Shown here one piece after another: positions 31,033 through 39,329 of a stretch of 64,000 nucleotides of DNA. Position 1 is the first letter of the stretch; each line of letters opens with the position of its first letter. The position numbers and the translations under genes are program-made. This stretch comes from Candidatus Caenarcanales bacterium. GTDB lineage: Bacteria > Cyanobacteriota > Vampirovibrionia > Caenarcaniphilales > Caenarcanaceae. The stretch covers positions 12,797 to 76,796 of the forward strand of contig JASJDU010000021.1 in NCBI GenBank assembly GCA_030065015.1, read 5' to 3'. The notes below the pieces were generated by a model that searched no databases, was not told the origin of the DNA, and saw only the letters and a list, made by a program, of their open reading frames with translations.

Positions 31033-33879
31033 CTAGGCAGCAGAATTTCCTTCACTGTAAGTTTCTTTCAAGAACATAAAACCACTGTTTGCATATTTGT
31101 TACAAATCCTGTCAGCTAAATCCTTCTCTCCATAGTCATAGAGATTTTTAACTAAACCTTTAATGTTTTCTTCTTTATATGCTGGAAGATGGTCTGTATT
31201 ATTTAAAAGCTCAATAAAGATTTCCCCAGAAGTTTTTGCTTTGAACTTTTCTTTAGAGTGTTTATAAAGATATTCAATAAAAAGACTATCTCTGTCAACA
31301 CCAACTAAATACTTTGTAGAGTTCAAGATTAATTCTTTAACCCCATTAGTATCTTTAACTAAGCAAATCCATAATCCTAAATAGGGCAATAAATCTTTTT
31401 TCAGCTCAGGAGATTCTTCACAAATTTCAATTAGCTTCTTCCATAGATTTTGAATTTTCTGGTCTGGTAATTTGTCGTTTTCATATTTGTCTTGTTGATC
31501 GTTTTTTAAGCTTCTCCATGCGTAATGAATGAGTTCTTTCAACTGCTCAACCTTTTTCTCTTTTAATACAAGATTTAATAAAGAATCTGAATTATCTAGA
31601 ATCTCTCTATTTTCAATATAACCAATAAATATATGATCAATTAACCTAGCCTCATAGTTGGAAGCTATGCCTTTTGAAATGCCATTCCTTAGGGCCTTTA
31701 GAAAAATTTCTTTATCTCTTAAGAACTCAAATAAATCTTCAGGTTGGTAGATGTAATTGATATGCCCAACATAACCCTGAAAAGAAGCATTGAACAAATT
31801 GAGATCTTCTTCAGAATCAGAGTCGGGAAAAATGTTTTGTATTTGTTTCTTTACCCAAGCAGAACCTGATATCCATAAATTAGCTAAATAAAGGCCTAGT
31901 ATTGCATTTACATTAGTTGAAGGTTTCTTGTCGAAAACATCTGAAAGAATATGAAAAAGATCATTCTTAAAATTTGTATTCTTCAAACCAAAAATAATTA
32001 ATGCTTCTGCGAATTTACCTTTTGTACTATTAATTGAGTTGTCGACGTAGCTGCTACTTTGAGATAAACTAAAATCTTTTTCCAAGAGTACAAACTGCAT
32101 TTTTATTAATAATTCTGAAACAGCATTCTCTAACTGTTTAACAAACTCGTTCTCTTCGCATACAATGCCTGCTCTCAAGAAGTCTATAATTCTACTGGTT
32201 CGGACTTCTTTTTCATCTTGATCGACTAATAAGTTGACTCTATGAATGAAGTAGGAAAATATCTTTTCCAGTTCTTGAACATTTAATGATTTGTTAAGGT
32301 AAGCCTTATGAAAACCAACAATTAAACTGTCATCAACAAACCATTCTGGTGTCTTTTTTAATTCTTCAATATTATCTAAAAACTTTTGAGGGTTTTCTGC
32401 TACGTGCTGAGAAAAGAAATCTGATACATCTCCTCTTCGAAAGTCTGATGATGAGTAGTAATTGAATTTCTTTTTATAGGCCTCAAGTGTTTCTTTAAAA
32501 TCAAACTGAGAGTAATCAACAAAAGAGTCTTTTTTTCTATCTTCTTCGGTTACAGTCCAAAAATATCTCCACCAACCGGGATGTCCAGGCTCTTCGGAAC
32601 ATATTGTATTTTGCTCCTTATATTTTTTTGTTATTTCTCCTGTTAAATCCTTGAATGGATATAGCCACCATTTTATTCTTGAAGCGATTGAGATTTTTTT
32701 ATCATTTTCAGCTACCCCATCTCTAAAATCGAAATTTAGATTTTTAATCCAAGCAAGTAGTTTCCTGCTTGCCTCTGTATCAATGTTTATTTTAGAAGCA
32801 TTATCACTTAATAACATCCAGACTTCATGAGGAGCCAATAAATCATAGTTGTAGGTGCTCTGGCTTTCTTTAGCTTCTAGCTCAGGTTGTAAAGGGTTAA
32901 ATTCAAGATTCCAAAATAAATTTTTGAGCTCGCTGTAGTGTTTGTTGATCCCATGGATTGCTATTCTGAATAAAACCGAAGTTGATTGATGTTTTTCAAT
33001 GTTTAACCAGTCTTCAATTAATGGCTTAGCTTCAATTGGTTCTAACCATTCAATGTATTCTCTTAAGCAAAAAACCAGTTGATTCTCGTATTCACTCACT
33101 CCTGTATTTTGGTCACTATCTTCAATTGAACTCAGAGAGACATCCTTATCGGGGAAAGATTTGATCTGCTCAACTATATGCTCACTAAGCTCTTTTCCGC
33201 ACATGGGAAACAATTTTTCTTTGTTGTTTTTAAAGTACTCATGGAGCCAATAATTCTTTAAATAGGGGAGTATATAGCCATTATCTTCCCTATGCTGAAG
33301 TATGCATTCTTTAAATAATTTCAAAGTAGGTTGTTTTAAAGAATTTTGGATTAAAGAGGGAAGTAAAAACCTCTGTATTGAGTAGCTGTAGCTATTACTG
33401 CCCCAGTATGGCCACTTAATTATTGAAATGCAAAAATCAATGTACTTGAGTTCAATCTTTTCTGGGGGCAAATAAGAAATGCATTCAATCAATATCTTGT
33501 TAGTCCTGAGATTTGTATGAAGCTGTTTCTCGGAAGTATCTCTCTTTAATTCAAATTCAATAATCCCATCAAGTATTTTGATTATTGAATCAAGTGATTT
33601 TTCATAAAACTTGTTTTCTTTGTCTAAGTGCTTCAGTTTTCGAGCTGCTGCCAAAAGCAAGGTCATAACACGCCAATCAGGAAAGCTGTAAAACCCTTTA
33701 TTCTTCTCGTCCTCTTTTGGTTCGGGATTCTTCTCAGGATCAAAATATTCTCTTTTCTCGAATTCACTTATCCACACTTCGGGAGCTTTTATTGCAACAG
33801 ACTGTAGAAAGTTAACTAAAACGGGGTCAGGTTTTAAAGATTCAAATAATTTATCAACCTTATTAACCCACTCCTTCAT
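31033..33879 (-). CDS. 948-aa all-alpha (solenoid-like) protein; predicted partner or sensor of the upstream SIR2-like protein
   Basis: Its ATG overlaps the TGA of the SIR2 gene (ATGA, 33876-33879), with AAGGAG 8 nt upstream. No TM segment, signal peptide, P-loop or catalytic motif is recognisable. The sequence is W/Y/F/L/K/E-rich and looks helical throughout. Confidence 0.8.
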   Translation of the reverse strand: MKEWVNKVDKLFESLKPDPVLVNFLQSVAIKAPEVWISEFEKREYFDPEKNPEPKEDEKNKGFYSFPDWRVMTLLLAAARKLKHLDKENKFYEKSLDSIIKILDGIIEFELKRDTSEKQLHTNLRTNKILIECISYLPPEKIELKYIDFCISIIKWPYWGSNSYSYSIQRFLLPSLIQNSLKQPTLKLFKECILQHREDNGYILPYLKNYWLHEYFKNNKEKLFPMCGKELSEHIVEQIKSFPDKDVSLSSIEDSDQNTGVSEYENQLVFCLREYIEWLEPIEAKPLIEDWLNIEKHQSTSVLFRIAIHGINKHYSELKNLFWNLEFNPLQPELEAKESQSTYNYDLLAPHEVWMLLSDNASKINIDTEASRKLLAWIKNLNFDFRDGVAENDKKISIASRIKWWLYPFKDLTGEITKKYKEQNTICSEEPGHPGWWRYFWTVTEEDRKKDSFVDYSQFDFKETLEAYKKKFNYYSSSDFRRGDVSDFFSQHVAENPQKFLDNIEELKKTPEWFVDDSLIVGFHKAYLNKSLNVQELEKIFSYFIHRVNLLVDQDEKEVRTSRIIDFLRAGIVCEENEFVKQLENAVSELLIKMQFVLLEKDFSLSQSSSYVDNSINSTKGKFAEALIIFGLKNTNFKNDLFHILSDVFDKKPSTNVNAILGLYLANLWISGSAWVKKQIQNIFPDSDSEEDLNLFNASFQGYVGHINYIYQPEDLFEFLRDKEIFLKALRNGISKGIASNYEARLIDHIFIGYIENREILDNSDSLLNLVLKEKKVEQLKELIHYAWRSLKNDQQDKYENDKLPDQKIQNLWKKLIEICEESPELKKDLLPYLGLWICLVKDTNGVKELILNSTKYLVGVDRDSLFIEYLYKHSKEKFKAKTSGEIFIELLNNTDHLPAYKEENIKGLVKNLYDYGEKDLADRICNKYANSGFMFLKETYSEGNSAA

Positions 33880-34832
33880 AGAAGATCTCCTTCTAGAATT
33901 TCTTTCGCTAGAGACTCTGTTTCTCTGAATTTTTCGTACAGGTCAGGTTTCCAATCTTCAACCTGTTGAATCCACTCTTTTAATAAATCGATTTGCTGAT
34001 GATAGCTTTTATGAGTTTTTTCATATGGGATTGGATCAATGCCTAAGCCATGAAAATAATATTTATCAAGTTCAGTGAATTCACTTCCATTTACATCAAA
34101 ATACCCTTCTAAGGTATAGTGACTTAATGCGGTTGTATTGTTTGGATCAATTGTCATGCTTAGTAATTCAAATTCATTTAGGCTATAACCAAGAAAAAGA
34201 ATTAGACTTTTTTCGAACAACTTTTTCATGTGCTCTTTAAAATCTGATTTTGCATAAAGTTTCAAGTAATCACTTACAGTCACAATTAAGCTTTGTTGAT
34301 TATCAACATGCCCGTGCATATAGAAAACTTTAGTAGAATCGATTTTTTCAAAAAAATCGCTATTCATATCTTCCACAGAAGAGAATTCTTTTGCTCTCTT
34401 AGGAAATTCGTCTAATAAATGATTATCGTAATTTGTTGTAATAAGGTTTACAGTGAAAAATCCTTTATTCTCGATTTGATCTACTAATTTTTTTAAAGGT
34501 TTAAATATATTTTTATCTTCATCATGCTTCAAAGAGACTTTTGGTTTTAAAGCATTGCGTATGCACTCATCGAATTTTGCATCTTGGGATCCCTTTTTGA
34601 AGACGCCTTCGCAGATTGTAATTATCTTTCTACTATTATTAATAGACGTCAAATCGTTCTGCTTCCTGAAGTTTATTAGTTTTAATTCAACTGCTTTATT
34701 AAGTAATTCATGAGCAAGTTGATCCCATCCCTTGCAACCAATTAATCTGGATGTTCCGGCGCCACAAAAAATTGTGATTGGCTTTGACTCTTCTAAAGCT
34801 TTATTAAGAATTTGAGAGAAATGAAAATTCAA
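33876..34832 (-). CDS. SIR2-like (SIR2_2 family) putative NAD+ hydrolase
   Basis: Ordered motifs: IFCGAGTS (aa 22-28), ITTNYDN (N134), YMHGH (H173) and ILFLGYSL (aa 211-218). TTG start with GAAGGG 7 nt upstream, and an in-frame TAG 4 codons upstream of the start (34845-34847) bounds the ORF. Confidence 0.85.
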   Translation of the reverse strand: MNFHFSQILNKALEESKPITIFCGAGTSRLIGCKGWDQLAHELLNKAVELKLINFRKQNDLTSINNSRKIITICEGVFKKGSQDAKFDECIRNALKPKVSLKHDEDKNIFKPLKKLVDQIENKGFFTVNLITTNYDNHLLDEFPKRAKEFSSVEDMNSDFFEKIDSTKVFYMHGHVDNQQSLIVTVSDYLKLYAKSDFKEHMKKLFEKSLILFLGYSLNEFELLSMTIDPNNTTALSHYTLEGYFDVNGSEFTELDKYYFHGLGIDPIPYEKTHKSYHQQIDLLKEWIQQVEDWKPDLYEKFRETESLAKEILEGDLL

Positions 34833-34850
34833 AATTAAACCCTTCTAATA

Positions 34851-34878
34851 TTGACAAATTTTATCAGTCGTTATAGGT
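34851..34878 (+). promoter_or_regulatory. Candidate sigma70-type promoter for the ImmA-like gene
   Basis: TTGACA (34851-34856), a 16-nt spacer, then TATAGG (34873-34878), in the 213-bp divergent intergenic region. The -10 element is weak and there is no experimental support. Confidence 0.25.
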
Positions 34879-35045
34879 AAATCCTGCACTCTCATAAAAT
34901 TTATGCTTATGGTCCAAATTTCAAAAAGTTTTTTTACAACCCAAACATTTGATAAATAAAAAGTGGATAAGTATACGGACTAAAGAATGGTTTGAGGGTA
35001 AAATAGACATAAGAATGTATTGGCCTAATACAAAAATTTCTCATT

Positions 35046-35561
35046 ATGGTTGTAACCCTTAACAAAAAACAGAATATAGAGAAAGAAACAGAAAACATTT
35101 TGCAAGCCATTTACGGCTCTATTGATTGTGTTGAATTGCCGATTGATTTGAATTATGTTTTAAAGTTTACAGGTTTAGAATTAATCCGTTTTACACCAAA
35201 CGATCCGAATTTAGAACATAAAGAGCTCTTTCAAGATGTTTTAGGAGCATATAGTAGAACGGGAAAAGCAATATTCATTCGAGATGGGCAAATACCTTCT
35301 CGTGAGGCTTTTACAATTGCACATGAAATTGGACATCATATCCTACATGAAGATATACATTTCAGAACTGATAATTTCAATTATATTGACGAAGAAATTG
35401 AAAAAGAGCAAGAGGCTAACTATTTTGCGGCTAGTCTTTTAATGCCGGACTGTTTAGTGAAAAAATATAAAGTAGATTATGGTGGTGACCTTGAAAAAAT
35501 ATCACTGATTTTTGGGGTATCCAAACAAGCAATGCAAATTAGACTCAGTAATTTAGATTAA
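35046..35561 (+). CDS. ImmA/IrrE-family (DUF955/COG2856) zinc metallopeptidase
   Basis: HEXXH motif in the typical context FTIAHEIGHHILH, plus the downstream E(Q)EANYFAASLLMP motif characteristic of ImmA/IrrE peptidases. Confidence 0.88.
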   Translation: MVVTLNKKQNIEKETENILQAIYGSIDCVELPIDLNYVLKFTGLELIRFTPNDPNLEHKELFQDVLGAYSRTGKAIFIRDGQIPSREAFTIAHEIGHHILHEDIHFRTDNFNYIDEEIEKEQEANYFAASLLMPDCLVKKYKVDYGGDLEKISLIFGVSKQAMQIRLSNLD

Positions 35562-35595
35562 TCAATTCGATAATTAAGCAAATACTTAGTGGCTT

Positions 35596-35931
35596 ATGGC
35601 TCAAATTACAGAAGAAAAACAAAATAATCAACAACTACAAGAGAATGCACTTTTGGCTTATCAAGAAAAAAGTCAAGAATTAGCAAGAGCCGAGCGTAAT
35701 CATAGACATGAACTTAGAATACGTGGTTTTATGTTAAAAACAGCAGTTCTCACCGGCTGTATAGTTGTATCTACCGTTATTATTTTTTCTTTAATTAGCC
35801 TATTAATATGGGGGAATGAATCCAAGTGGCAAACAGTTTATGACTCATTATTAGCAATGTTGTCTTACATCTGGACTGCAATTGGAGCCGGAGCAGTAGG
35901 CTTGATCTTTGGAAAGAAAATGAAGGGTTAG
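35596..35931 (+). CDS. Small membrane protein (two predicted TM helices), unknown function
   Basis: Polar coiled N-terminus of about 45 aa, then helices AVLTGCIVVSTVIIFSLISLLIW and LLAMLSYIWTAIGAGAVGLIF. It starts 34 nt downstream of the ImmA-like gene on the same strand. Confidence 0.6.
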   Translation: MAQITEEKQNNQQLQENALLAYQEKSQELARAERNHRHELRIRGFMLKTAVLTGCIVVSTVIIFSLISLLIWGNESKWQTVYDSLLAMLSYIWTAIGAGAVGLIFGKKMKG

Positions 35932-36413: not shown

Positions 36414-39329
36414 ATGAGCGATAATCAACAAAACTGGAATCAACAGGAATGGATAAGTGTTAGCGGTGCAAGAGAACACAATTTAAAAAGTATCAATGTA
36501 GAAATTCCCAAAAATAAATTAGTTGTAATAACTGGTGTCTCAGGATCTGGGAAAAGTTCTCTCGCTTTTGACACAATTTTTGCCGAGGGGCAGAGAAGAT
36601 ATATTGAATCTTTGTCTTCTTATGCTCGCCAGTTCTTGGGACAAGTTGATAAACCCGACGTTGACTCTATCGAAGGATTAAGCCCAGCAATTGCTATCGA
36701 TCAAAAATCGACCAGTACAAATGTTCGATCTACTGTTGGAACAATAACGGAGATCTACGATCATTTGCGCTTGTTATATGGACGCATAGGCCATCAACAT
36801 TGTCCAGTTTGTAACACTCCGGTCAGCAAACAAACTATCGATCAAATAATTGATCAGATTTATGAAAAATCAAATGAAAAGAGAGGGCTGATTCTCGCTC
36901 CGATTATTGAACAAAAGAAAGGTGAACATTCTTCCCTTTTGCAAAAATTAAAGAAAGATGGTTTCTTAAGAATAAGAATTAACGGAGAGATTAAATCTTT
37001 AGATGAAGATATTAAACTTGCAAAAACTAAAAAGCACGATATAGAGATTGTAGTAGACCGAATAATTGTAAAAGAAGAAAACCGTTCACGTTTATCGGAT
37101 AGCTTGAGTTTAGCTTTGAGCAAAGGTGGAGGTTTCGCAAAATTTGCAATTGTTGACTCGGATAAGGAAGTAATTGAGGAGCTTTATTTCTCTGAAAACT
37201 TGGCTTGTCCTCATGGGCACGGAAGTCTTCCACCTTTGAGCCCTAAAATGTTTTCCTTCAACAGCCCAGAAGGTGCTTGTCCGGCCTGTCATGGAATAGG
37301 GCACTCCTTGGAATTTGATCAAGAAAAACTGATTCCCAATATTAAAGCACCTTTAATTCAAGCTATTGCTCCTTGGGCAAAATCGAGCACAAACTACTAT
37401 ATTCAGCTTCTATCTTCTGTTGCAAAGGCTTTTGACGTTAACCCCACTGAGCAATGGAATAAGCTAAGCAAAGAGTTCCAAGACATTATCCTCAATGGTT
37501 CTAAAGAACCAATTGAATTGAGCTATGACTCTTTTGATGGAGAAGAACTGCTCACCTTTAATATGCCATTTGAAGGAGTTATTCCTAGGCTGAAAAGGAA
37601 ATATATGGAAACAAAAAATGAGAAGGTTAAAAGTGACCTCTCGACTTATATGACTCATAAGATGTGTGATGTTTGTAATGGAGGACGTTTAAGAGTTGAG
37701 TCCCTGGCTGTAACCGTTGGAGACATCAACATTCAAGAAATAACAAATTTGAGTATTGACAAAGCTCTGGAATTTTTTATTAACCTCCCGAGTAAGCTAT
37801 CGACTTATGAGCTTGAAATTGCAGAAAGAGTAATTCAAGAAATAAAGAATAGACTCAATTTTTTGAATGATGTTGGGTTAAATTATTTAACTTTAAGCCG
37901 TTCCGCAGGAAGTCTGTCTGGAGGAGAGTCCCAGAGAATTAGACTTGCAACTCAAATAGGCTCAGGCTTGTCGGGGGTTTTGTATGTATTAGATGAGCCT
38001 AGTATTGGTTTGCATCAAAAAGATAACGATCGACTTATTGAGACCTTAAAGAAACTAAAAGCTTTAGGCAATACTGTCCTGGTTGTTGAACATGATGAAG
38101 ATACCATGAGTGCTGCTGATTGGATTATTGATGTTGGTCCTTATGCTGGTATTCATGGAGGTAAAGTTGTCTCTAGTGGAACTGTTGATTCAATTTCGGC
38201 TAATCCAGATTCGGTTACGGGGAGATATTTGTCTGGAGAATGGGAAATACCATTGCCGGAAGAACGAAGAGAAGGCAACGGTAACAGTTTAGTTATTCGC
38301 AAAGCGCAGCTGAATAACCTCAAAAACATCGATGTGAAAATTCCATTGGGAAAAATGGTAGTTGTGACAGGCGTTTCGGGTTCAGGTAAATCATCATTGG
38401 TAATGGACTTGTTGTTTCCCTATCTCGAAAGCAAGTTCTTAAAAAATAGAATCAAGCCAAATCAAATTGAAACAATTGAAGGTTTGGATAATCTGGATAA
38501 AGTGATAGAGATAGATCAAAGTCCAATTGGTAGAACCCCTCATTCAAACCCTGCAACTTATACTGGAGCATTCACCCCAATTAGAGAGCTTTTTGCTTCA
38601 ACTCCGGAGGCGAAAATGAAAGGCTATAACCCAGGTCGGTTTTCTTTTAATGTTAAAGGGGGAAGATGTGAAGCTTGCTCTGGACAAGGCCACTTAGAAA
38701 TTGAGATGAATTTTCTCCCCTCCGTTTATGTTAAATGCTCCGTTTGTGATGGAAAGAGATATAACAAAGATACTCTAGAGGTGAAGTACAAAGGCTATTC
38801 AATATCGGATGTTCTTGAAATGACAGTTAGTCAAGCCTATGAAACATTTTCTTCAATACCTTCTATTAGCAATAAGCTAAAAACTTTAGAGGAAGTTGGA
38901 CTGGGTTACATTAAGTTGGGTCAGTCCGCAACAACGCTTTCGGGAGGAGAAGCCCAAAGGATTAAGTTAGCCAGTGAATTATCCCGTAGGCATACCGGAA
39001 AAACAATTTACATACTAGATGAACCAACAACCGGATTACACTGGTACGACGTTTCTAAACTACTTAATGTTCTTCAGCAGTTGGTAGACTCTGGGAATAC
39101 GGTGTTAATTATTGAGCATAATTTAGATGTAATTAAACAAGCCGATTGGATTATTGACTTAGGCCCCGAAGGCGGAGATAAAGGCGGACAAATTATTGCA
39201 AGTGGTCCCCCTGAAGAAGTTTCAATGAATGAGGATTCTGCCACCGGGATGTATTTGAAAAGAATTCTTGATAAAAAGTTGAAGCCTAATAATAAAAAAG
39301 AAGAAACTAGGAGAACGATCAAGGTTTAA
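36414..39329 (+). CDS. uvrA: Excinuclease ABC subunit A
   Basis: Two ABC ATPase modules (GVSGSGKSS twice; LSGGESQR / LSGGEAQR; VLDEPS / ILDEPT) and the UvrA zinc modules (CPVC, CPHGH...CPAC, CDVC, CEAC...CSVC). 971 aa. Confidence 0.98.
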   Translation: MSDNQQNWNQQEWISVSGAREHNLKSINVEIPKNKLVVITGVSGSGKSSLAFDTIFAEGQRRYIESLSSYARQFLGQVDKPDVDSIEGLSPAIAIDQKSTSTNVRSTVGTITEIYDHLRLLYGRIGHQHCPVCNTPVSKQTIDQIIDQIYEKSNEKRGLILAPIIEQKKGEHSSLLQKLKKDGFLRIRINGEIKSLDEDIKLAKTKKHDIEIVVDRIIVKEENRSRLSDSLSLALSKGGGFAKFAIVDSDKEVIEELYFSENLACPHGHGSLPPLSPKMFSFNSPEGACPACHGIGHSLEFDQEKLIPNIKAPLIQAIAPWAKSSTNYYIQLLSSVAKAFDVNPTEQWNKLSKEFQDIILNGSKEPIELSYDSFDGEELLTFNMPFEGVIPRLKRKYMETKNEKVKSDLSTYMTHKMCDVCNGGRLRVESLAVTVGDINIQEITNLSIDKALEFFINLPSKLSTYELEIAERVIQEIKNRLNFLNDVGLNYLTLSRSAGSLSGGESQRIRLATQIGSGLSGVLYVLDEPSIGLHQKDNDRLIETLKKLKALGNTVLVVEHDEDTMSAADWIIDVGPYAGIHGGKVVSSGTVDSISANPDSVTGRYLSGEWEIPLPEERREGNGNSLVIRKAQLNNLKNIDVKIPLGKMVVVTGVSGSGKSSLVMDLLFPYLESKFLKNRIKPNQIETIEGLDNLDKVIEIDQSPIGRTPHSNPATYTGAFTPIRELFASTPEAKMKGYNPGRFSFNVKGGRCEACSGQGHLEIEMNFLPSVYVKCSVCDGKRYNKDTLEVKYKGYSISDVLEMTVSQAYETFSSIPSISNKLKTLEEVGLGYIKLGQSATTLSGGEAQRIKLASELSRRHTGKTIYILDEPTTGLHWYDVSKLLNVLQQLVDSGNTVLIIEHNLDVIKQADWIIDLGPEGGDKGGQIIASGPPEEVSMNEDSATGMYLKRILDKKLKPNNKKEETRRTIKV

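Follow-up and report, generated by a model that had tools for sequence, protein, structure and literature searches.

A DSR1 homologue carried by two overlapping genes, a SIR2 effector and a helical sensor, in a Candidatus Caenarcanales bacterium

Two overlapping genes on the reverse strand of a 64,000-nt stretch of Candidatus Caenarcanales DNA (the whole of which is called the window here) appear to encode a homologue of the anti-phage protein DSR1 (defence-associated sirtuin 1) that is cut at the linker between effector and sensor, the two halves being made separately from a translationally coupled two-gene operon. This reading, to which a probability of about 0.8 can be assigned, is built on sequence comparison and draws on the homology of both halves, the catalytic motifs, the coupling signals and the conservation and recurrence of the split. 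The locus is not a new system; what is new is a two-gene variant of the known DSR1 (Gao et al., 2020; Garb et al., 2021/2022; Lee et al., Nature 2026) that has hitherto not been studied on its own.

The first gene (33876..34832, reverse strand) begins with TTG and encodes a predicted DSR1-type SIR2 NADase of 318 aa. The protein matches Pfam SIR2_2 (E 5.6e-18) and positions 19–303 of the PADLOC Dsr1 profile PDLC04166 (E 1.3e-68), and the best structural matches of its AlphaFold2 model (pLDDT 88.2, pTM 0.86) are the defence sirtuins KomC, FAM118B, ThsA, DSR2, Avs5 and SPARSA, with TM values of 0.55–0.65. Its motifs are IFCGAGTS (aa 21–28), ITTNYDN (131–137), YMHGH (171–175) and ILFLGYSL (211–218); the original prediction had placed the last three correctly and had started the first at aa 22 instead of 21. 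In an alignment of 40 fused and split DSR1-type SIR2 sequences, Asn134 of the TTN motif (codon 34431..34433, reverse strand) and His173 of the HG motif (codon 34314..34316, reverse strand) are invariant, as are G24, G26, T132 and G215, while D136 is conserved in 39 of the 40; the Asn/His pair is thus intact, as had been claimed. In defence SIR2 NADases the Asn of the TTN motif is catalytic, as known from the DSR2 and ThsA literature, and by analogy Asn134 presumably has this role here. His173, the putative catalytic histidine, would correspond by motif position only to H171 of DSR2, for which H171A structure entries exist.

The second gene (31033..33879, reverse strand) begins with ATG and encodes the 948-aa sensor; both ORFs lie where the original prediction had placed them, and since the DNA has a G+C content of 35%, an ORF of 948 codons cannot be due to chance. 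No Pfam or NCBIfam match was found for this protein. PDLC04166, on the other hand, aligns with it at positions 308–1225 (918 of 1227 positions, E 4.7e-125), and it corresponds to the C-terminal sensor region of DSR1. Its AlphaFold2 model (pLDDT 80.4) is almost wholly helical, and Foldseek returned only generic HEAT/ARM and importin-like solenoids as structural neighbours (TM 0.2–0.35), in agreement with the alpha-solenoid that had been foreseen. Searches of PDB copies with the sensor sequence and profile gave no match, and no DSR1 sensor structure was found in those copies. The protein is divergent, with 22–27% identity in the multiple alignment and 24–38% over the stretches matched by HMMER, and of the three Dsr1 models in PADLOC it matches just one. 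A sensor family unrelated to known systems, as the original prediction had also envisaged, would agree with the missing Pfam and NCBIfam matches and with the lack of a specific structural neighbour; it is hardly credible in view of the strength and extent of the Dsr1 profile match and of the fused DSR1 proteins found among the best HMMER matches.

Because the two proteins together cover the same Dsr1 profile end to end, leaving 4 positions between them, the pair is read as DSR1 cut at the effector/sensor linker. The closest relative of the sensor in the search of representatives is the 1236-aa fused protein P0004 (32% identity over matched stretches), which itself covers positions 1–1226 of PDLC04166. 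The tiling and this fused relative bear out the other option that had been put forward, a split DSR-type system, whereas the idea that the system is undescribed does not hold, as a profile search, named in advance as a check able to refute it, puts the pair in the known DSR1. The spacing of landmarks agrees with a clean cut: the distance from a conserved SIR2 Trp (W287 in the window) to a sensor Asn (N51 in the window) is a constant 76 residues in fused relatives, 75–76 in seven of eight class-A split pairs and 83 in the window pair, and from this near-constancy across fused and split forms it follows that the cut removes nothing. DSR1 is a single-gene system in both PADLOC and DefenseFinder. 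Here effector and sensor occupy two ORFs in different frames joined by ATGA, with two ORFs likewise at 13 other loci, and we therefore class it as a split variant, distinct from canonical DSR1.

The junction itself is a stop/start overlap (ATGA, 33876..33879, reverse strand) in which the sensor gene follows the SIR2 gene in the -1 frame, confirming the overlap described before. An AAGGAG within the SIR2 3' end (33887..33892, reverse strand), probably acting as a Shine-Dalgarno sequence for the sensor gene, was also correctly reported, except that it lies 7 nt and not 8 nt before the ATG; a comparable AGAAGGG (34840..34846, reverse strand), with the same putative function, precedes the SIR2 start codon (TTG) at an equal spacing of 7 nt. 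Upstream, an AT-rich intergenic region of 213 bp with no plausible ORF (34833..35045, unstranded) separates the SIR2 gene from a divergent gene for an M78 peptidase. The promoter from which the two-gene operon is transcribed presumably lies here, and a scan of this region for the sigma-70 consensus gave nothing above background. The 4-nt overlap of the window type is also found in L001, L005 and L029, and the other split loci show a 2-nt gap or overlaps of 8, 11 or 17 nt, with GGAG-type motifs at the equivalent place in L004, L005–L008, L011 and L015. Split-locus junctions are always tight and accompanied by Shine-Dalgarno-like motifs, and each sensor ORF has its own start codon; the predicted translational coupling is borne out at sensor-only relatives. 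These features also bear on the idea that a full-length fused DSR1 is still produced because ribosomes make a programmed -1 frameshift, or transcription slips, where the two genes overlap. The -1 frame of the sensor ORF in the window, L001, L005 and L029 is what such a mechanism would need, but the junction (GATCTTCTATGAAGG) contains no slippery heptamer or homopolymer run, the remaining junction types would require other frame changes, and every sensor start codon is preceded by its own Shine-Dalgarno-like motif, which makes frameshifting extremely improbable.

The split was followed among relatives of the sensor taken from an exhaustive HMMER scan of cluster representatives, which gave 539 relatives at E<=1e-3; a word-indexed homologue search with the partner or with a 40-sequence profile had returned three to four proteins only. 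Among the best 150 of the 539 sensor-related representatives (clusters at 50% identity), 73 are sensor-only (880–990 aa), 28 are fused to SIR2 and 31–32 carry another N-terminal domain, these alternative domains of about 200 aa having no match in Pfam. A SIR2_2 gene, overlapping or 2 nt away, lies directly upstream in 14 of the 14 sensor-only genes with readable upstream DNA, as expected from the conserved linkage proposed originally. The MAGs that carry split loci are bacterial and archaeal, with hosts that include a Halobacteria archaeon, Planctomycetia, Nitrospiraceae, Geobacteraceae, Brocadiaceae, Thermodesulfovibrionia and Azotimanducaceae; the related-loci search used a 5-sequence alignment and is biased towards relatives of P0005. 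Two different cut points were found, both flanking the same linker helix, which implies that fission took place at least twice. Fused and split forms intermix in a neighbour-joining tree of the sensors, with 41 parsimony changes of architecture, a rough upper indication given that this is a distance tree without support values. A divergent SIR2 subtype occurs at the second cut point, and at three related sensors a PIN_12 gene takes the place of SIR2 as the partner. Some related loci have decayed, the SIR2 gene being frameshifted in L011 and only fragments being left in L018 and L023.

Such decayed loci, and the fact that two ORFs in different frames add up to one DSR1, could suggest that the window holds a single DSR1 gene broken by a frameshift, either as a decaying pseudogene or through an assembly error, and no functional two-protein system. 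This is very unlikely: the identical protein is found on 7 contigs, the sensor gene has its own ATG and a Shine-Dalgarno-like motif at 7 nt, the catalytic residues are intact, both ORFs are intact at 14 independent, highly divergent loci with tight junctions of five kinds, and sensor-only proteins outnumber fused ones among the best 150 of 539 relatives. The gene split is real and recurrent, and common in nature. In the literature searched, the sole mention of a two-gene form of DSR1 was the term 'split proteins' in the methods section of one paper (PMC13581612); it is a real architecture that this literature barely describes.

Compared with the described DSR1, homology extends through both halves and nearly the whole of the PADLOC Dsr1 profile, the order is the same (SIR2 NADase first, helical sensor of about 920 aa second), the catalytic motifs are shared and the expected action by analogy would be NAD+ depletion upon sensing of a phage protein; DSR1 differs in being described and modelled as one protein of about 1200 aa, whereas the window carries two polypeptides encoded by overlapping genes. 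DSR2 is also a single chain, and the tail tube, a structural protein of the phage, switches it on. It resembles the window pair in combining an N-terminal SIR2 NADase, on which the SIR2 model superposes at TM ~0.6, with a large helical sensor; however, no PADLOC Dsr2 model matches either window protein (E<=1) and the sensors are unrelated by sequence. Avs7 is a STAND NTPase in which a TPR-like bilobed sensor, reported to be shared with Dsr1, binds the HK97-fold major capsid protein (PMC12803255; PMC13581612). The sensors are similar in size (about 950 aa) but the window pair lacks the NTPase domain and the Cap4 nuclease. Nothing relevant to Avs7 was found for the sensor in the PDB copies searched and, because the PDB sequence and profile searches gave nothing and Foldseek only generic solenoids, the Avs7 link rests on the literature and on P0153, a protein with a STAND-like ATPase that carries a DSR1-type sensor (Dsr1 positions 499–1162, E 2.8e-46). 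The sensors of P0004 and P0006 also match a second Dsr1 model, PDLC02183.

Several named systems likewise place a NADase gene beside a partner gene, namely Thoeris (ThsA/ThsB), SIR2-HerA, SPARSA (SIR2-APAZ/pAgo) and Lamassu (LmuA-SIR2), and the ThsA and LmuA models match the window SIR2 domain weakly (E 4.5e-12 and 4.3e-19, respectively). Unlike in Thoeris, the ThsA models align to the SIR2 part only, there is no SLOG domain and no TIR protein is found among the neighbours. Unlike in SIR2-HerA, SPARSA and SIR2-STAND (Avs5), Pfam and PADLOC give no HerA, pAgo/APAZ or STAND match on the partner or neighbours, the window SIR2 protein also being free of an APAZ domain; unlike in Lamassu, the partner is not an SMC-like LmuB.

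The defence-island context also expected for the pair is absent: no such island was seen within the 64-kb window, the neighbours being housekeeping genes (tgt, an ABC transporter, DUF2237, uvrA and mazG), and the G+C content of the locus is not clearly deviant. PADLOC matches to mad3/mad8 in the window-wide scan derive from UvrA, are of the generic ABC ATPase kind and give no evidence of an island, and no protein that would account for the PD-T4-6 matches was found by regex. The adjoining M78 peptidase was considered as a component of the system and rejected, as it is absent near other DSR1 loci; elsewhere it is accompanied by a small 2-TM partner of its own. Searches of the sensor by tblastn gave no match in phages and, in plasmids, one weak Haloferax match (two records of the same strain).

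Both protection from phage and depletion of NAD+ are established for DSR1 (bioRxiv 10.1101/2021.12.14.472415), and the E. coli protein EcDsr1, whose sensor is homologous to that of Avs7, is triggered by a phage major capsid protein (PMC12803255; PMC13581612); binding of this protein has been demonstrated only for EcDsr1 and SeAvs7 (PMC13581612). How the sensor switches on SIR2 is not addressed for DSR1 in the literature searched. As the window pair has effector and sensor on separate polypeptides, activation must act in trans, and by analogy the sensor likely perceives a phage structural protein and switches on the NADase in this way. For this pair we infer complex formation, trigger, NAD+ depletion and defence as follows: SIR2 and sensor would assemble non-covalently through the C-terminal linker helix of SIR2 and the first sensor helices, and the NADase would be kept inactive within the complex. 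On infection the sensor would wrap a conserved structural protein of the phage; the HK97-fold major capsid protein is the most probable candidate, given what is known of E. coli Dsr1 and Avs7. Capsid binding would then alter the conformation or oligomeric state so that the SIR2 domain becomes active, and hydrolysis of NAD+ would block phage replication. The same proteins could instead form a module of toxin/antitoxin type with a control logic other than that of fused DSR1, in which SIR2 on its own is constitutively active, the helical partner serves chiefly as its inhibitor, and release comes from partner degradation, titration or a non-capsid trigger. Separate polypeptides do allow stoichiometry-dependent control, tight translational coupling is typical of such pairs, and the window sensor is very divergent from characterised DSR1. 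This alternative is nevertheless considered unlikely, as the effector comes first, the boundary is that of the domains in the fused protein with no extra sequences, and the intermixing of fused and split forms in the sensor tree argues for one common mechanism.

With DSR1 encoded by two genes as the preferred reading, the natural split versions suggest that a covalent link between effector and sensor is dispensable, and the two cut points delimit the linker helix as the probable carrier of the contact between them. The sensor and effector of split DSR1 lend themselves readily to pull-downs, titration and reconstitution. Where a DSR1 profile is applied with a cut-off on coverage, the two-gene form, which the sensor-only proteins (73 of the best 150 representatives) would represent, may go unrecognised or be labelled wrongly. 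The recurrent fission and the versions with PIN_12 or unknown domains suggest that the sensor is a portable module, as Avs sensors are. A broader reading is offered tentatively, at somewhat short of even odds: the split may be the prevailing state of the sensor clade and a true two-component pair, in which the sensor, of capsid type, stands alone and activates an effector that is bound non-covalently and whose gene is a swappable cassette (SIR2 at 14 loci, the divergent SIR2 at the second cut, PIN_12 at three loci). If so, the signal from sensor to effector must cross a small portable interface, the linker helix, and over half of the family would escape the current single-gene DSR1 models.

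The SIR2 gene (33876..34832, minus strand; 318 aa, TTG start) is followed by the gene of its helical partner (31033..33879, minus strand; 948 aa, ATG start), the TGA of the first overlapping the ATG of the second in an ATGA at 33876-33879 (minus strand). The original prediction had noted this overlap with an AAGGAG 8 nt upstream of the partner; the motif is present (33887-33892, minus strand) at a spacing of 7 nt, and an AGAAGGG is similarly placed 7 nt ahead of the TTG start. The four SIR2 motifs that it had listed were all found, with IFCGAGTS at aa 21-28 (one residue off in the earlier reading), and its codon coordinates for Asn134 and His173 were exact. Both catalytic residues are intact and invariant in 40/40 aligned SIR2 sequences, and Pfam SIR2_2 covers residues 130-240 of the SIR2 protein (E 5.6e-18). 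The partner has no Pfam match, and neither protein is matched in NCBIfam.

Comparison with PADLOC models places the SIR2 protein on positions 19-303 (E 1.3e-68) and the partner on positions 308-1225 (E 4.7e-125) of the same Dsr1 model, PDLC04166 (1227 positions). Since both proteins match this single model, the pair is, at the level of homology, one DSR1 severed between effector and sensor, an identity that the PADLOC match settles. It had been proposed that the pair was either a split DSR-type system or a new sensor family; the match to a named model bears out the first option and removes the second, and the pair is not a new defence system. With the partner as query, HMMER was run exhaustively against 1.84 billion cluster representatives and returned 539 relatives at E<=1e-3, the top match being P0004, a 1236-aa protein with 32% identity that spans Dsr1 model positions 1-1226 (1888 bits) and whose N-terminus is matched by the window SIR2 protein. 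Both halves of the pair are thus homologous to DSR1 but, unlike DSR1, effector and sensor are two polypeptides, and the locus is therefore filed as a split variant. The absence of their partner or accessory domains excludes DSR2, Thoeris, SIR2-HerA, SPARSA, Avs5 and Lamassu. AlphaFold2 models agree with the DSR1 reading: the predicted SIR2 fold (pLDDT 88.2, pTM 0.86) can be superposed on those of the defence sirtuins KomC, FAM118B, ThsA, DSR2, Avs5 and SPARSA (TM 0.55-0.65), and the partner (pLDDT 80.4) is modelled as a nearly all-helical solenoid, as had been anticipated, with structural neighbours limited to generic HEAT/ARM proteins.

The two-gene form is abundant. Among 152 proteins (the best 150 of the 539 relatives plus P0002 and P0003), 73 are sensor-only (880-990 aa, matching from the N-terminus), 28 exceed 1180 aa and carry a fused SIR2, and 32 measure 991-1180 aa with another N-terminal region; near-full-length sensors alone give 73, 28 and 31, respectively. 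As predicted, linkage to SIR2 is conserved: a SIR2 gene lies directly upstream in 14/14 sensor-only genes whose upstream DNA was read (the window, L001, L004-L008, L011, L015, L017, L025, L027, L028 and L029/L030). Named hosts of split loci include a Halobacteria archaeon, Planctomycetia, Nitrospiraceae, Geobacteraceae, Brocadiaceae, Thermodesulfovibrionia and Candidatus Azotimanducaceae. The two genes overlap by 4, 8, 11 or 17 nt or are separated by a 2-nt gap, and a GGAG-type motif usually precedes the sensor start. The distance between a conserved SIR2 Trp (W287 here) and a conserved sensor Asn (N51 here) is exactly 76 residues in 23/28 fused proteins, 75-76 in split pairs of the window's kind once joined end to end, and 83 in the window pair; judged by this spacing, no sequence is lost at the cut. 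Additionally, there are two cut points. Class A (window, L001, L006-L008, L015, L017, L028) is cut after a linker helix (consensus IDxAxE), whereas class B (L005, L025, L027, L029 with L030) is cut ~25 residues earlier, so that this helix opens the sensor protein. Class B SIR2 proteins match the DSR1 SIR2 profile at only E 1e-10 to 1e-20, compared to 1e-57 to 1e-126 for the others, a divergence that might have arisen by exchange of the effector for a different SIR2 subtype and not by simple fission. Given the two cut points and the divergent class B SIR2, fission or effector replacement occurred at least twice; in a rough NJ tree of sensors, split, fused and other architectures are intermixed. 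On abundance, linkage, clean cut and two cut points the split is real, which makes it very unlikely that the window pair is a pseudogene, an assembly error or a programmed frameshift.

The sensor is also found with other partner genes or N-terminal domains. In three MAG loci (L019:1817-5729, L020:305-3860 and L024:5122-9049) a ~305-aa PIN_12 gene takes the place of SIR2 upstream of a ~1000-aa DSR1-type sensor (PADLOC Dsr1 E 6.7e-101 in L024); in L019 and L024 the two ORFs share 14 nt. The PIN part has no PADLOC model, and these loci appear to be effector-swapped two-gene relatives of split DSR1. In L002:6770-9967, L013:5497-8802 and L014:5509-8802 an unannotated N-terminal domain of ~190-260 aa replaces SIR2 and is fused to the sensor, as in 31 near-full-length sensor representatives; this domain has no Pfam match. 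The L002 gene sits in a clear defence island, with a type I R-M operon (hsdR/M/S) on one side and an Orf5/HEC-06-like gene on the other. Decayed copies were seen in MAGs of Brocadiaceae (L011:2354-3375, SIR2 gene frameshifted), Methanophagales (L018:5483-6786, short fragments only) and Spirochaetes (L023:57-3291, gene broken).

The defence-gene neighbourhood that the original prediction had envisaged was not found at the window locus, where tgt, DUF2490 and an ABC transporter lie on one flank and DUF2237, uvrA and mazG on the other, and PADLOC models searched across the window revealed no convincing second system. The DNA was assigned to a MAG (GCA_029976255.1, contig JARPNU010000235.1). The pair has a G+C of 0.31-0.35, the window as a whole 0.35, and no noteworthy flanking repeats were found around the pair. 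UvrA (36414-39329, plus strand) matches mad3 (E 3.7e-101) and mad8 (E 1.9e-37) and could be mistaken for a MADS component; these were rejected as generic ABC ATPase cross-matches of a housekeeping protein. In a pooled scan of 50 other window proteins (outside 31033-35931), one protein has matches to many PD-T4-6 models (the best at E 3.7e-36) and single members match mad2, mad6 and MkoA, all of which may be generic domain matches; a kinase-motif regex did not locate the PD-T4-6-matching protein. The only non-housekeeping neighbours, transcribed divergently from the pair, are a stand-alone M78/ImmA-IrrE metallopeptidase gene (35046-35561, plus strand; 171 aa, Pfam E 7e-21, PADLOC capP E 1e-20), with no HTH partner at this locus, and, starting 34 nt after it, a gene (35596-35931, plus strand) for a protein of 111 aa whose N-terminus is charged and which has two TM helices and a weak SLATT_4 match (E 0.17). 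In both L031 and L033, in housekeeping surroundings that are unrelated, an M78 homologue is likewise followed by a similarly organized protein of 138-140 aa, and no linkage of such pairs to DSR1 was found at other loci. The two genes look like a conserved self-contained module.

DSR1 protects against phage and lowers NAD+, and against phi29 the fall is transient, without culture collapse (Garb et al., bioRxiv 10.1101/2021.12.14.472415; PMC10952713). The E. coli Dsr1 sensor is homologous to that of Avs7; a co-expression screen singled out the phage ZL19 major capsid protein as the only activator of cell death by EcDsr1, and the bilobed SeAvs7 sensor envelops the HK97 fold (PMC12803255; published as PMC13581612). 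In line with this relationship, the metagenome protein P0153 (1370 aa) is an Avs-like protein with a sensor of the window's family (Dsr1 profile positions 499-1162, E 2.8e-46), preceded by a STAND-like ATPase (AAA_22/AAA_16, weak nSTAND3) and an AbiEi-like wHTH. A further PADLOC Dsr1 model, PDLC02183, is matched by the sensors of the relatives P0004 and P0006, and through these matches and P0153 the window family is tied, though only indirectly, to capsid-sensing Dsr1/Avs7. Coupled translation would yield near-equal amounts of the two proteins, which we infer to dock through the first helices of the sensor and the linker helix. Capture of a phage structural protein by the sensor, with the major capsid protein as the likeliest candidate, would then activate the SIR2 NADase in trans and lead to NAD+ depletion.

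DSR1 is known as a system; its two-gene form, common in nature, is new and unstudied, our literature search having found no account or test of it beyond a mention of 'split proteins' in the methods of PMC13581612. Split DSR1 is of use to annotators and to anyone dissecting how the sensor signals to the effector.
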